From a virus, in the IMG/VR virus record IMGVR_UViG_3300005647_000006: DNA of 64,000 nucleotides. One strand, 5' to 3'. Positions 7,390 to 41,885 of the stretch are shown here, piece by piece; the stretch's first letter is position 1; each line of letters opens with the position of its first letter. Below the pieces are notes generated by a model. That model saw only the letters and a program-made list of their open reading frames with translations, did not search any database and was not told the DNA's origin. A program made the position numbers and the translations under genes.

Positions 7390-8055
7390 CTACTTCTCAT
7401 ATTTTGGTTTTGACCAGCAATTATGTTTGGGAGGATAGTATCTACCATCCGGCATGGTACGTCCATTACACCAAGAATGGATTGTTGTTTTATTTACTTT
7501 ATGTTTTTTGGCAGCATCAATGGCAGCATCATAACGCTTACCATAAACATACCAAATTCTTGAATCGCGTGTATTTCTTTGTTGTGTTTTTCTACTTGCC
7601 CAAATACAGTTACTTGGTGAATATCCTTTACTATTATTTTTTCGCTCTATTGATAAACCTTTTTTATATCCATTGGCTTCAGCCCAAGTAATAAATTTCT
7701 CAATATTATTTTTCCACGCACTGCAAACTTTAATTCCACGCCCACCATAATCTAGATATGCGTTGTCATTTATATTATGACATCTAGCCACCATACCAAT
7801 CCATGTACCATAAAGTCTGTGTTTACTGTAACCATGTTTTAAACTTTCCGACACATAGCACAAACAACCACATGATTTTGTTTTAAGTGATCTAACATCA
7901 GAAATTCTGATTGTTTTTTCCTTGCCACAATCACATTGAAATTTAGCTGTCCTAAAATAACGACTGCCAGAATATATATCAGCATCATCATATAGGTAAG
8001 TCAATCGTGTGCCTTTAAACTTTTGGCCTTCTTTATAATTAATTCTAGCCGCCAT
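7390..8055 (-). CDS. HNH-family homing endonuclease
   Basis: CDCG, W.GM..RC.N, YGGRGIKVC..W, LSIERKNN..GYSPSNC.W. Confidence 0.8.
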   Translation of the reverse strand: MAARINYKEGQKFKGTRLTYLYDDADIYSGSRYFRTAKFQCDCGKEKTIRISDVRSLKTKSCGCLCYVSESLKHGYSKHRLYGTWIGMVARCHNINDNAYLDYGGRGIKVCSAWKNNIEKFITWAEANGYKKGLSIERKNNSKGYSPSNCIWASRKTQQRNTRDSRIWYVYGKRYDAAIDAAKKHKVNKTTIHSWCNGRTMPDGRYYPPKHNCWSKPKYEK

Positions 8056-10527: not shown

Positions 10528-11181
10528 TCAATATTTTGGTTTAGACCAGCAATTTTTTCTCGGTGGAAAATTAATTCCTTTTGAAGTATATCCTTCACAT
10601 ATCTTACGCACTTCATATTGAGTAATTCCAAGCGCATCAGCAGCTACATTAGATGAATTATATTCAACACCATCAATATACCACCACTTTGTTCCACGCT
10701 TATTTCTATTTTGTTCTGCCATAGTAATAAAAGAACAATTGCTAGGTTCATAATTACCATCGGAATCATTCCGTTCTATGGTTAGACCTTCTTCATATCC
10801 ATTTGTCATTGCCCATTTAATAAATGAATTAATATCTTCTCTCCATTCATCACAGACAGTAATTCCACGACCACCGTAATCAGAATATGCTTTATCATTT
10901 ATATTGTAACATCGACCCAATACACCATAATAACAAACATGTATCCGTGGTTTTGTTCCTTTATAAATTAAATCTCTTTCATCTTTTAATTTTTTATTAT
11001 AGCAACCACATGATAAAATTCTATTTCGTAAAATTGCAGGAATACTTATTTCCTTTTCCTCACCACAATCACAACGACAGAGTGCATGGCGTTCATACTT
11101 TTCGGTATCAACATCATGGAGATAAGTTAATAACGTTCCCTCAAATAAATGACCTTCTATAAATTCAGCTTTGTGTGACAT
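10528..11181 (-). CDS. HNH-family homing endonuclease (paralog of 7390-8055)
   Basis: CRCDCG, RCYN..YSDYGGRGITVC.EW, LTIERND..NYEPSNC; shared C-terminus NCWSKPKY. Confidence 0.8.
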   Translation of the reverse strand: MSHKAEFIEGHLFEGTLLTYLHDVDTEKYERHALCRCDCGEEKEISIPAILRNRILSCGCYNKKLKDERDLIYKGTKPRIHVCYYGVLGRCYNINDKAYSDYGGRGITVCDEWREDINSFIKWAMTNGYEEGLTIERNDSDGNYEPSNCSFITMAEQNRNKRGTKWWYIDGVEYNSSNVAADALGITQYEVRKICEGYTSKGINFPPRKNCWSKPKY

Positions 11182-11247: not shown

Positions 11248-11964
11248 TTAGGTTAAAGCTGGAACAGCAGCACTGCCACCAACTTGCTTGTTAAGTGACA
11301 CACGATCACCAGCATCTTTGCCAGCATTGTAAGCATCAGAATCCATGACCTTAGTTCCACGAGATTTACGTGCCTTAGTCAAAGGACTGAAATGATCAGT
11401 GATTAATTGATTCTTAATAACAATTAATGATGTGCCAGTAGTCGAAGCAGCTTGTTGTTCAGCTTCACGGTCAGCTTTAATCTCATTAGATCTTTTACAC
11501 ATGCGACTAGCAAAACCAATTCTAAAAGCAAACAAAGCATCAGCACCTTTAGCACCAGTTTCTTTTTTGTATTTTTTAAGCTCCCTCGCTTGTACTTCTA
11601 ACAGGTATTCAAAAAGCATAACAGCAATTTGATCATCCCCTTGGAATCCCCTAAAGCGCATTGTGCGTTCCTTACCTTTAGTATTCATGTAAGAAACCGT
11701 ATCCGAGATATTACCAGCAGCTAATGCTAGTGCAGAATACCACTTGGGAATTGGCGATCTGAAACTCTTACCAGCGTTCACATCATTAAATTGATGATTG
11801 TCTGATTGTTGAAGTTCGGATTCAGTGAAACCATGTTTAGCCATCATCGAAGATAATCGCTTCATGGCGATGGAAGCCTCGTGCTCATTAGCTGAATCTT
11901 GGCTAAGTGCAAATAATTTTTTAGCTCTATCGAGCAGCTTTGCTCTATTCTCTGTAGCGTTCAT
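11248..11964 (-). CDS. DUF2786 domain protein
   Basis: KLLDRAKKLFALSQDSANEHEASIAMKR...MAKHG. Confidence 0.75.
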   Translation of the reverse strand: MNATENRAKLLDRAKKLFALSQDSANEHEASIAMKRLSSMMAKHGFTESELQQSDNHQFNDVNAGKSFRSPIPKWYSALALAAGNISDTVSYMNTKGKERTMRFRGFQGDDQIAVMLFEYLLEVQARELKKYKKETGAKGADALFAFRIGFASRMCKRSNEIKADREAEQQAASTTGTSLIVIKNQLITDHFSPLTKARKSRGTKVMDSDAYNAGKDAGDRVSLNKQVGGSAAVPALT

Positions 11965-18312: not shown

Positions 18313-18912
18313 ATGAGAATCATATATAAAATAATTAATTTGCTCGACGATACTGTTATCTATATAGGACAGACTGACTACTTGGTAGGTCGTAAGTCAA
18401 CGACTAGGTGGCAGGTTAATAATGGATATACATATCCAATACATAATAAGATTAGAGAAATTGGCTGGAACAATATTAAGTACCAGATACATACTCAAGT
18501 TGAGTCTCAAACAGAAGCAGATGCAATTGAAAGTAAATTAATTGAAAGTATTTCTACTGTTGTTAATTCTAGAAGTGGTGGGTTGTCTGGTGATACATTA
18601 AGCGAAGATCATAAAAAGAAATTAATTAAAAACCATAAAGGTACAAAAGGTATCAAAGGCAAGCTTCATACAGATGAAACAAAACAGAAAATATCTATAG
18701 CTAATACAGGTAAAATTCATTCAGATGAAACTAAACAGAAAATATCACAAGCACGTAAAAACAATAAAAATATAAGAAAACTAACCGACGATCAAATTAA
18801 ATCAATCAAAGCAGATACACGATTTCAAAAAGACATTGCCACCGATCATGGTATTACACAACAACATGTATCACTAATTAAATGTGGTAAGTGGCATTCA
18901 GAAATTAATTAA
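18313..18912 (+). CDS. GIY-YIG homing endonuclease with NUMOD3 repeats and HTH
   Basis: IYKI..VIYIGQT; HTDETKQKIS twice. Confidence 0.8.
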   Translation: MRIIYKIINLLDDTVIYIGQTDYLVGRKSTTRWQVNNGYTYPIHNKIREIGWNNIKYQIHTQVESQTEADAIESKLIESISTVVNSRSGGLSGDTLSEDHKKKLIKNHKGTKGIKGKLHTDETKQKISIANTGKIHSDETKQKISQARKNNKNIRKLTDDQIKSIKADTRFQKDIATDHGITQQHVSLIKCGKWHSEIN

Positions 18913-32920: not shown

Positions 32921-33165
32921 ATTTTAAATACGAATTACATTTATTTGATGTTGAAAGTGAATTCAGAATTCCCTATCAAGTTTGGCATTATGATACTAAA
33001 GAGTTTGCTATGGGGGAATTTATATCTGTGGTCAATGAACCTGAAGTTAAATATGCAGAATTAATGGAAATAGATGAAGGTCATTTTTCAAGCACTCTTA
33101 AATTATATAGAGAGTCAAGACATAGAGAAATTGCTAACATTTGTATTAATTTAGAGGCGATATGA
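32917..33165 (+). CDS. family A small paralog
   Basis: ends CINLEAI. Confidence 0.7.
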   Translation: MNFKYELHLFDVESEFRIPYQVWHYDTKEFAMGEFISVVNEPEVKYAELMEIDEGHFSSTLKLYRESRHREIANICINLEAI

Positions 33166-33393
33166 TTTATACCATAGCACTAAAGGAAACATACGAAAGT
33201 GAATTGATCAGTGTTTCTTATGATGATGAAGTTTTTCCCGGTGCTTATGACACAGCGCTGATAGAATTTAATAATGCAAAACTTCATAATTATAGATTTG
33301 CTAGTTTTCATAAAACCAAATATGATTTAAGTCACGAAGAATTGCTTGGTCTTCACATGGGTAGTCTTACATTGGAATTTCCGCTCCAATTCA

Positions 33394-34623
33394 TCAAACT
33401 TCGGCTCCTGCCTTGTTTTCTGAATTTAATTGTTGCGAAATCATACGCTTCATCGGGTTGACTTGTTGGTGGTGCCCAAAAGCACCAGCAACAGCGGCCA
33501 CTCCCTCCACGTTTAACGACCGATTTAATCCCTCGGCCAAGATGTTAATGGCAGCATTGTGATCACGATCAAGTGCCACTCCACAATCGCACTTCATGGT
33601 GCGTTTGTTAAGTGGCATATCGTGAAGACAACCACAACCATTGCACATCTTTGTTGATGGAAACCACCGATCTATTTTGATCAGGGTTTTATCGTGCCAT
33701 TGGCACTTATATTCTAGTTGACGGACAATTTCTCCAAAGCTTGCATCTGCAAGTGATTTTGCCAGTTTTCTATTTCGCATCATGCCTTTGGCATTCAGCG
33801 ATTCAACACAGATAACATCATTGTTTTTGACAAGTTTTGATGTCATCTTATGAATTGCATTTTTTCGCGAATTGGCTATCTTCGCATGAATCGATGCAAC
33901 TCGCAGCACTTGGCGCTTGCGCCTGTTGCTGTCTTTATTTTTTCTTGCTAAAACTTTTTGTGCTCGTGCCAATCGTTTGGCATATATCTTTGTGAAATTT
34001 AAAATAGCCAATTCATTTCCATCTGAATCAACAGCACGAGTTTTTAGTCCCACATCAATGCCGATTGACTTGCCAGTTTTTTTGAATTGAGCAATATCGG
34101 TTTTCGTCATGAAAGAAATCCAATATTTCCCATCAGGTGATCGACTGGCAGTTGCCATCTTTGGCAACCCATAGCCCAAATTTTTAGGCCATTTGATCTT
34201 GCAAGCTCCCAGCTTGGGGAGCTTGAACAGATTGAATGGTTGATATATGCAGGACATGTTAGTGCTTTGCATTTGAAATCGAACACTGGCTCTGGTTTGT
34301 CGTTTCTTATATTTTGGATATCTTGCTTTCAATTTTGGGTTATTGAAATTTTTAAACGCTGTTTTGAGATTTTCCAGAGTCTGAGAAGATGATGTGGCTG
34401 GCACAGCAGCCAGCCAATCAAATTCTGACTCTTTCTTAATCTGGGTTAGCGTTTTTGAAATGTCATTAGTTGAAAAATAGCTATTTTCATCTTTCCTGAA
34501 ATTAGACATAGCCCACAAAGCAGTATTCCAGACCCAACGGTTGGCACCAAAATATTGCTCTAGCAATATTTTTTGTTTTGTGTTAGGATAAAACCTAACT
34601 TTATGTCCTTTTTCGATAAGCAT
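33394..34623 (-). CDS. tnpB: RNA-guided endonuclease TnpB
   Basis: KVRFYPN HTH, RuvC IGIDVG / VICVESL / DRDHNAAINI, Zn ribbon CNGCG..CDCG; start trimmed to MLIEKG. Confidence 0.9.
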   Translation of the reverse strand: MLIEKGHKVRFYPNTKQKILLEQYFGANRWVWNTALWAMSNFRKDENSYFSTNDISKTLTQIKKESEFDWLAAVPATSSSQTLENLKTAFKNFNNPKLKARYPKYKKRQTRASVRFQMQSTNMSCIYQPFNLFKLPKLGACKIKWPKNLGYGLPKMATASRSPDGKYWISFMTKTDIAQFKKTGKSIGIDVGLKTRAVDSDGNELAILNFTKIYAKRLARAQKVLARKNKDSNRRKRQVLRVASIHAKIANSRKNAIHKMTSKLVKNNDVICVESLNAKGMMRNRKLAKSLADASFGEIVRQLEYKCQWHDKTLIKIDRWFPSTKMCNGCGCLHDMPLNKRTMKCDCGVALDRDHNAAINILAEGLNRSLNVEGVAAVAGAFGHHQQVNPMKRMISQQLNSENKAGAEV

Positions 34624-34630
34624 TGATGTT

Positions 34631-34659
34631 ATGATATCAGACAATGAGCGGAAATGCAA
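34631..34659 (-). promoter_or_regulatory. sigma70 promoter of tnpB (leaderless)
   Basis: TTGCAT-17-TATCAT, ATG 7 nt downstream. Confidence 0.65.
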
Positions 34660-34804
34660 GTTATTGCACCCGATGGAGGCCAATGGGCCGCTCCATCTGC
34701 GGTTATCTCTGGTGCCACTGCGTTTCCCAACCGAAACCTGTGGGTCGTCGGCATCGTGCCTCCTTCGAAGAATCTGAAAAAATTTGTTCTGAACTGGATG
34801 CGAT

Positions 34805-35047
34805 ATGAATTATATACTGTACGTTGAAAAACTGACTGGTGTGAATCAGGAAAATGATGAGTTTCCATTTGATCTTTTAGAAAATGCAATCTCAAAATTT
34901 ACAGCAGTGATGCAAAAGGATAATGTTCTTAGAGCAAAAATTATTAAAATAGATCATTATGGAACCGATCATAGGCCAGTGTATAGCTATGATCAAACCA
35001 TCAAAACTAAAATAAATAAACTTTGTGATGAGATGACATTGTTATGA
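34805..35047 (+). CDS. family A small paralog
   Basis: ends CDEMTLL. Confidence 0.7.
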   Translation: MNYILYVEKLTGVNQENDEFPFDLLENAISKFTAVMQKDNVLRAKIIKIDHYGTDHRPVYSYDQTIKTKINKLCDEMTLL

Positions 35048-40715: not shown

Positions 40716-41885
40716 ATGCACGAAATTTGGACCGGAATGCCTGAATTCAATCAGAAAAAACAGGTTCCTTACCATTTACTCGTTATCCAGCACGATTATG
40801 GCACTTTGCGCATTAGATTTGCAACCAAAGATGATTTAGATGAATTTAACGCACTGTACGATTTTGAAATATCACCAGACATTAAAGAAATTACCATTGG
40901 CTGTCCAGTCGAATTCGGTAAACGAATTAATCAAAAAATAACAACCAAAACAAAAAGCACATGGCATCCATTCAGACCACATCGTGGAGCCTTGAAACAT
41001 AAATGGGTTAACCCAAAAAACACACATCCTCGATATCCAGTTTATGTAGTATCGAAAGGCCGCTGGAAAAATACAGTCACATCCAGAATATTAAATAAAA
41101 TGGGTGTTGAGCATTATATCATTGTTGAGGAATCTGAATTTTCTAATTATATGGAAACTGCTGTGGATCTGGCTTGCGTTCTAACGCTTCCACAAGAGTA
41201 TTTGGATGCATATAACACCTGTGATGAATTTGGTGGAGAGAAGTCGAGGGGGCCGGGTTCTGCTCGAAATTTTTGCCTAGATCATTCTAAAGATGATGGG
41301 TTTAGACGCCATTGGGTTATGGATGATAATTTGGAGGCATTTTATTATTTAACGGATAATCAAAAATTAACAGTTGAATGTGCCGATACGCTTAGGGCTG
41401 CTGAAGATTTTGTTGATAGATACACGAATGTTCCTGTAGCTGGATTAAATTATGATTCTTTCTGTAAAGCCACTGATGGTGTACCGCCATTGGTTTTAAA
41501 CACTCGCATCTATTCTTGCTTACTAATCGATAATGAAATGGAATATCGATGGAGAGGGCGCTATAACGAAGATACTGATCTATCTCTCAGAGTTCTTAAA
41601 GATGGTTTGTGTACAATTCAATTTAATGTTTTTTTGTGTGGGAAAATAACAACACAGCGAATGCGTGGTGGTAATAGTAAAGAATTTTATGATGAAGAAG
41701 GAACACTGCCCAAATCTCAAATGTTGGCTGATCTACATCCAGACGTAGCAGAAGTGGTATGGAAATTTAATAGACACCACCATCAAGTGAATTATAAACC
41801 ATTTAAGGATAATAAATTAATTCCTAAAAAGCCAATTGTTGATAATGGTCCAGATAATTATGGAATGGTTAAAGTTCTTCGATAA
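40716..41885 (+). CDS. TAGT/GREB1-like (GT-A fold) glycosyltransferase fused to N-terminal GMPEF domain
   Basis: PVYVVSKGR, G.ARNF, HWVMDDN, IYSCLLI, WRGRYNEDTDLSL, TQRMRGGN. Confidence 0.7.
   Translation: MHEIWTGMPEFNQKKQVPYHLLVIQHDYGTLRIRFATKDDLDEFNALYDFEISPDIKEITIGCPVEFGKRINQKITTKTKSTWHPFRPHRGALKHKWVNPKNTHPRYPVYVVSKGRWKNTVTSRILNKMGVEHYIIVEESEFSNYMETAVDLACVLTLPQEYLDAYNTCDEFGGEKSRGPGSARNFCLDHSKDDGFRRHWVMDDNLEAFYYLTDNQKLTVECADTLRAAEDFVDRYTNVPVAGLNYDSFCKATDGVPPLVLNTRIYSCLLIDNEMEYRWRGRYNEDTDLSLRVLKDGLCTIQFNVFLCGKITTQRMRGGNSKEFYDEEGTLPKSQMLADLHPDVAEVVWKFNRHHHQVNYKPFKDNKLIPKKPIVDNGPDNYGMVKVLR

Follow-up and report, generated by a model that had tools for sequence, protein, structure and literature searches.

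A tnpB-only insertion element within a family A gene of a phage and its predicted TAM, omega RNA and guide

The guide of a TnpB nuclease consists of the 16-20 nt beyond the right end of its element. Meers et al. (2023, PMC10055086) describe two near-identical motifs of IS605 elements: a left-flank motif that serves TnpB as its transposon-adjacent motif (TAM), and a transposon-encoded motif (TEM) at the right boundary, with only one or two positions changed between them. They also report that the excision joint is a substrate for TnpB cleavage. A 2026 review of OMEGA systems lists 'non-restorative homing' for transposons (PMC13565253), and TnpB homing between phage genomes is so far an entry in a review table, not a demonstrated event. 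Here, we analysed a 64-kb stretch of phage DNA (the window) with a tnpB gene on its minus strand. We consider it probable that this gene belongs to a non-autonomous, tnpB-only (IS1341-like) element of the IS200/IS605 family, located on the minus strand 3' of TCGAA, RNA-guided and capable of homing. It is an ordinary new element of a well-known transposon family. Its carriage by a phage is already common for tnpB-only elements, since relatives of its TnpB are encoded in 421 phage records.

The DNA around the insert is AT-rich phage DNA (about 30% GC), and no near-identical DNA to the window was found among 50,697 phage records. Between 29.9 and 36.3 kb, the plus strand carries a row of family A-type genes linked through ATGA overlaps. 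Up to about codon 70, the gene starting at 33162 resembles its paralogues; beyond this point, the similarity is lost. Its N-terminal part (33162-33371, plus strand, 70 codons), delimited by the ORF list and the paralogue alignment, belongs to an ORF that now continues into the element and stops at 33461. The C-terminal part, delimited in the same way (34764-34808, plus strand, 14 codons and a stop), carries the family A C-terminal tail and has an ATGA overlap with the next gene. Both parts are in plus frame 0, and together they align full-length with 21 paralogues. This agrees with the sequence-only reading, which had proposed an intact TnpB element inserted in a family A gene that resumes in frame, and the protein domains and catalytic triad described below agree with it as well. 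In the paralogue alignment, the break falls 11-12 residues before the conserved C of family A. Joining 33371 to 34764 restores an 84-codon gene, split after codon 70, with 12 residues from the conserved aromatic position to the conserved C (11-12 in the paralogues). The GC content is 40-49% in the insert versus about 30% in the flanks, and the rise covers exactly the insert stretch. This family A gene is a pseudogene owing to the insertion sequence.

With its most likely length of 1392 bp (3 x 464), the insert leaves the host frame unchanged on either side. However, the insert has an in-frame stop at 33459-33461, and the frame match is thus without consequence for translation. The preserved frame would also be expected of a self-splicing IStron, or of a domesticated, nuclease-dead TnpB-like regulator, and we regard either as highly improbable. 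The IStron was rejected on three grounds: a search at E up to 1 matched no group I intron family, the element and the host gene run in opposite directions, and the stop interrupts the frame. The intact RuvC triad led us to reject a dead TnpB or TldR-type regulator.

No target-site duplication is present at the element boundaries. The insert is flanked by a single direct repeat (8 bp; 33335-33342 and 34766-34773), which encodes Glu-Glu (E-E) in both gene parts. We rejected it as an 8-bp target duplication because it lies off the inferred boundaries and its use would delete the family A L-I-K-x-Y block. Misassembly was also rejected: three contigs carry a protein identical to the TnpB and two carry the disrupted ORF, which excludes a one-off error.

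The search for an empty allele gave negative results. The exact flank pattern with a 0-30 nt gap found no empty allele in IMG/VR, and a codon-degenerate junction pattern found none in metagenome contigs. Among 5.8 billion proteins, the N-terminal part matched only itself. When it was searched together with both neighbouring genes against IMG/VR, no relative was found, and the one match, of 15 residues in a primase-helicase, was due to chance. The conserved end blocks of the element are absent from IMG/VR. As no empty allele was found, the ends were placed with one diverged relative, the element L001 (68% amino acid identity), whose flanks gave no usable empty site and whose upstream ORF has no Pfam family. 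L001 is the only close locus among 173 TnpB loci fetched from metagenome, viral and genome collections; the other 172 have at most 41% identity and their ends are unalignable. Two further relatives, P0002 (73% identity) and P0003 (70%), are closer to the TnpB than L001.

The left end of the element is at the high coordinate and the right end at the low coordinate. On the element's strand, nucleotide homology with L001 starts abruptly at TCGAA (34768-34764), upstream of which the sequences are unrelated, and it ends on the right at TCCAA (33376-33372). TCGAA (34764-34768, minus strand), the first block conserved with L001 and directly 5' of the left end, is the predicted TAM. It belongs to the host gene, where it corresponds to codons F-E on the plus strand. 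The sequence-only reading had placed the TAM within 9 nt, and TCGAA is the part of these 9 nt that L001 has in common. The predicted TEM, TCCAA (33372-33376, minus strand), is the last block common to L001 and forms the final bases of the right end; it differs from TCGAA at position 3. The pair that bounds the homology with this one relative fits the rule of near-identical TAM and TEM. As a control, five identical copies of a 40%-identical element in a Heteroscytonema assembly start with TCAT... and end with ...TCAA. Taken together, the bounds of L001 homology, the TAM/TEM rule and the Heteroscytonema control suggest that the element most likely covers 33372-34763 (1392 bp, minus strand), and the GC step and the length of 3 x 464 are consistent with this placement. 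The ends may be off by a few nucleotides. The frame would also be preserved with a right end 3 nt beyond TCCAA.

The left end (34624-34763, minus strand, 140 nt) contains a 27-nt block (34763-34737) that is almost identical in L001, promoter-like hexamers and a conserved hairpin. This hairpin (34697-34672, -8.6 kcal/mol) is also present in L001, where three compensatory changes preserve its pairing, and is located 66 nt from the TAM, which is not the textbook IS608 geometry. The hairpin at the right end (33390-33371) is weak (-3.4 kcal/mol) and not kept in L001, where a different stem around a conserved core replaces it, so that the right-end hairpins of the two elements differ in place. On the minus strand, the left and right hairpins have the octamer TGGAGCGG in common; the chance of a common 8-mer between two 150-nt ends is about one in three. 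An earlier claim of related hairpins at both ends holds to the extent that both exist, have an octamer in common and the left one is conserved, but the right one is weak and unconserved. The right hairpin was abandoned as a landmark for the right end because L001 does not keep it.

The sequence-only reading used this landmark and placed the right end at about 33364/33365 and the guide from 33363. With these ends, the hairpin at 33390-33371 would be a right-end hairpin bound by TnpA, with a 7-nt spacer after it. We consider this arrangement unlikely. The hairpin does exist and has the octamer in common with the left end, and in IS608-like elements and the Heteroscytonema family the cleavage site is about 10 nt 3' of the right hairpin. 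However, L001 has no hairpin there and resembles the window only as far as TCCAA. The bases 33371-33365 are AT-rich and host-like, and with the left boundary at 34763/34764, a right end placed at 33364 would put the two host parts out of frame.

With the preferred right end at 33372, the guide would begin at 33371 on the minus strand, directly beyond the TEM. The predicted guide template is TGTAAGACTACCCATGTGAA (33352-33371, minus strand). It is antisense to host codons 64-70, and its first 16 nt recur nowhere else in the window even when up to 3 mismatches are allowed. The expectation of a minus-strand guide taken from the flanking DNA past the right end is supported. The start at 33363 is not, as L001 homology ends with TCCAA at 33376-33372 and most likely gives a start at 33371, and the guide probably lies 8 bases from where it had been placed. 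Because of this 8-nt offset, a guide from 33363 would not be adjacent to the TAM in the empty allele.

The omega RNA scaffold is predicted at 33372-33516 (minus strand, about 145 nt), where it overlaps the last 38 codons of tnpB and ends in the TEM. These 145 nt fold better than 200 of 200 shuffles (z -3.5), and the counterpart in L001 has a fold z of -4.1. A joint fold of the two regions consists of two long stem-loops followed by a single-stranded tail of 7 nt that has the TEM at its end; 5 of the 35 pairs are preserved by compensatory change. In comparison with L001, the 38 overlapping codons have a dS of 0.33 versus 1.54 in codons 1-369, and third-position identity is 0.74 in the overlap versus 0.54 before it. 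This synonymous-site constraint is confined to the 3' end of tnpB, as would be expected if the reading frame contained an RNA. The fold z-scores, the compensatory pairs and the five-fold synonymous drop support a putative omega RNA over 33516-33372. The two TnpB RNA families of Rfam did not match the element; these families represent only a small subset (Meers et al. 2023, PMC10055086). When the two omega regions (window and L001) were combined into a covariance model, it found no further members in 93 distant loci.

The tnpB gene (33394-34623, minus strand) encodes 409 amino acids followed by a stop, and its assignment is based on Pfam, a PDB alignment and PHROG. The listed ORF (33394-34683) begins at TTG. 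We reassigned the start to ATG 34623, because the alignments to ISDra2 TnpB and to the relatives P0002-P0004 begin there; from this ATG, residue 3 pairs with residue 3 of ISDra2. HTH_OrfB_IS605 (PF12323), OrfB_IS605 (PF01385) and Cas12f1-like_TNB (PF07282) were all found above their cut-offs. The PDB alignment with ISDra2 TnpB has an E value of 5e-59 across residues 3-368, and the protein belongs to PHROG 506 (phrog_506, E 2.5e-112). The RuvC residues D190, E274 and D354 fall on the catalytic D191, E278 and D361 of ISDra2 (the numbering of PDB chain 8h1j is offset by +2 from the ISDra2 residue numbers), and they are invariant among six relatives. The presence of all three RuvC acidic motifs, noted from the sequence alone, was thereby confirmed. 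The zinc ribbon is formed by C327xxC330 and C345xC347, and its second knuckle, CxC, is also found in several relatives. Between codons 1 and 369, dN against L001 is 0.20 and dS is 1.54 (dN/dS about 0.13), indicating strong purifying selection on this TnpB lineage at the protein level.

We also observed a second block that is unusually conserved against L001, at 33784-33903 (tnpB codons 241-280), where third-position identity is 0.85 versus about 0.5 elsewhere. It is far upstream of the predicted omega RNA, and may reflect a recombination tract or a further signal embedded in the gene.

Upstream of the reassigned start, promoter-like hexamers TTGCAT (34659-34654) and TATCAT (34636-34631) are separated by a 17-nt spacer; the ATG follows after 7 nt, and a Shine-Dalgarno sequence is lacking. 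The hexamer spacing is the same in L001. A leaderless sigma70 promoter had been proposed here; the hexamers, their spacing and the lack of a Shine-Dalgarno sequence are consistent with this, but the hexamers match only 8 of 12 consensus positions and a promoter scan made no call. A leaderless tnpB message is plausible on these features. At 600-617, just 5' of its tnpB start, L001 has TATAAATA, a T4-type late-promoter word, and the window element has TATCATAA at this place.

On the strand opposite to tnpB, a frame that is open through the left end leaves the element in both cases (window 34644-34808, plus strand; L001 126-629, minus strand) and joins the flanking host ORF in frame. The conserved end block encodes a peptide, PVGRRH, that occurs in both of these antisense frames. 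The arrangement could be due to chance (about 1 in 9) or could be a means of sustaining downstream translation.

The 1392-bp insert has no room for tnpA. Six Y1 transposases from related loci were compared with the 64-kb window by tblastn, and none matched (all E > 0.5); these queries came from loci of distant relatives, and 3 of the 6 were confirmed as Pfam Y1_Tnp. The absence of tnpA, previously noted for the locus, therefore extends to the element and the whole window for these six queries. TnpB relatives at 37-41% identity adjoin Pfam-confirmed Y1_Tnp genes. The element is present once in the window, its termini are not inverted copies of each other, and it has no terminal inverted repeats. 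Movement to new sites would need a Y1 TnpA in trans, from the bacterial host or from elsewhere in the phage.

We also weighed an IS607-type element, for which a serine recombinase would be the mobilising enzyme and the AA dinucleotide common to both junctions the crossover site. Both junctions end in AA, the end geometry is non-canonical for IS608, and about 8% of tnpB genes adjoin a serine recombinase (Meers et al. 2023, PMC10055086). Nevertheless, screening the fetched loci for motifs in the ORFs 5' of tnpB revealed Y1 candidates beside relatives, three of these candidates being Pfam-confirmed, and no serine recombinase, which makes an IS607 origin quite improbable. It would, moreover, predict the same empty allele and guide.

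The lack of tnpA in the window and the single copy are also what a stranded relic would show: an element that landed once from a bacterial host, is immobile without TnpA, has a useless nuclease and RNA, and is intact because it arrived recently. The unameliorated GC content of the element and the lack of known IS-free relatives for homing are consistent with this explanation, as is the possibility that the phage DNA is modified. On the other hand, TnpB cuts without needing TnpA, every catalytic and RNA feature is intact, and a recent arrival is compatible with activity. We therefore keep the relic as a possible explanation that we do not favour.

Under the preferred reading of a homing-capable element, the last ~145 nt (33516-33372) would be transcribed as omega RNA, extending 16-20 nt into the flank from 33371 downward. 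TnpB with this RNA would recognise TCGAA followed by the flank sequence, a combination present only in the element-free copy of the gene. The occupied allele would be spared because the same flank is preceded there by TCCAA instead of TCGAA. Once TnpB has cut the element-free copy, an occupied genome would serve as the recombination partner from which the element is copied back. An excised element could be regained in this way, or an IS-free relative could acquire it during mixed infection. Cutting of the uninterrupted allele would follow the standard model published for bacterial chromosomes. The extension of this model to co-infecting phages is what the 2026 review lists as non-restorative homing (PMC13565253), and for the present element it is an inference.

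Whether the element is at present an active RNA-guided homing unit between phage genomes, which cuts the uninterrupted family A allele of IS-free relatives, is a separate question, and we answer it tentatively, on the doubtful side. In that case, the element would be copied into the rival genome or would simply damage it, and a dispensable member of the multi-copy family A would serve as a safe landing site. The antisense frame from ATG 34644 may then keep downstream translation going. One feature of the phage bears on such activity. A TET-associated glycosyltransferase is encoded at 40716-41885 (plus strand; Pfam PF20691, E 4e-46), with 66% identity to Vibrio phage henriette 12B8. Its presence points to hypermodified cytosines in the phage DNA; such modification, if present, could hinder cutting by TnpB.

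Several genes in the same region of the phage also encode likely homing endonucleases. They include two paralogous HNH genes (7390-8055 and 10528-11181, minus strand; phrog_374, E 1e-47) and a gene for a protein with the NUMOD3 motif (18313-18912, plus strand). A protein with DUF2786 and DUF7168 is encoded at 11248-11964 (minus strand).

The element offers a natural test case for the question of whether TnpB elements act as homing endonucleases between phage genomes; apart from this, its description is routine annotation. The predictions are specific: a TAM of TCGAA, a self-sparing TEM of TCCAA, a 20-nt target and a compact nuclease of 409 amino acids.

Among known systems, the ISDra2 TnpB and omega RNA of Deinococcus radiodurans (PDB 8H1J, 8EXA) have the same domain order, a similar length (408 amino acids versus 409 here) and the same D-E-D triad. 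In both, a guide RNA (predicted here) overlaps the 3' end of the gene and reads into the right flank, and a 5-nt motif lies 5' of the left end. However, well under half of the aligned residues are identical, the TAM is TTGAT in ISDra2 versus the predicted TCGAA here, and the second zinc knuckle is CxxC there versus CxC here. The window element also differs in having no tnpA in cis, in residing in a phage genome and in having an activity predicted from sequence. The tnpB-only ISGst elements of Geobacillus (PMC10055086) are likewise non-autonomous, with a left TAM and a near-identical TEM at the right boundary. Their nuclease targets the excision joint, whereas the 'joint' here would be an allele in another phage genome.

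The TnpB genes of other phages (for example Gifsy-1 GipA, Pseudomonas phage 5399, Klebsiella phage FBKp34 and Vibrio phage 501E54-1) are all less than 40% identical to the window TnpB. In contrast to these, the ends of the window element can be read to near single-nucleotide precision, and it splits a recognisable gene. The homing endonucleases of T4-like phages (Seg, Mob, I-Tev), both free-standing and intron-borne, resemble the proposed scheme, in which the allele lacking the element is cut in a co-infecting genome and the element is then copied in. Unlike in those systems, recognition here would be RNA-guided, and the host gene is disrupted without splicing.
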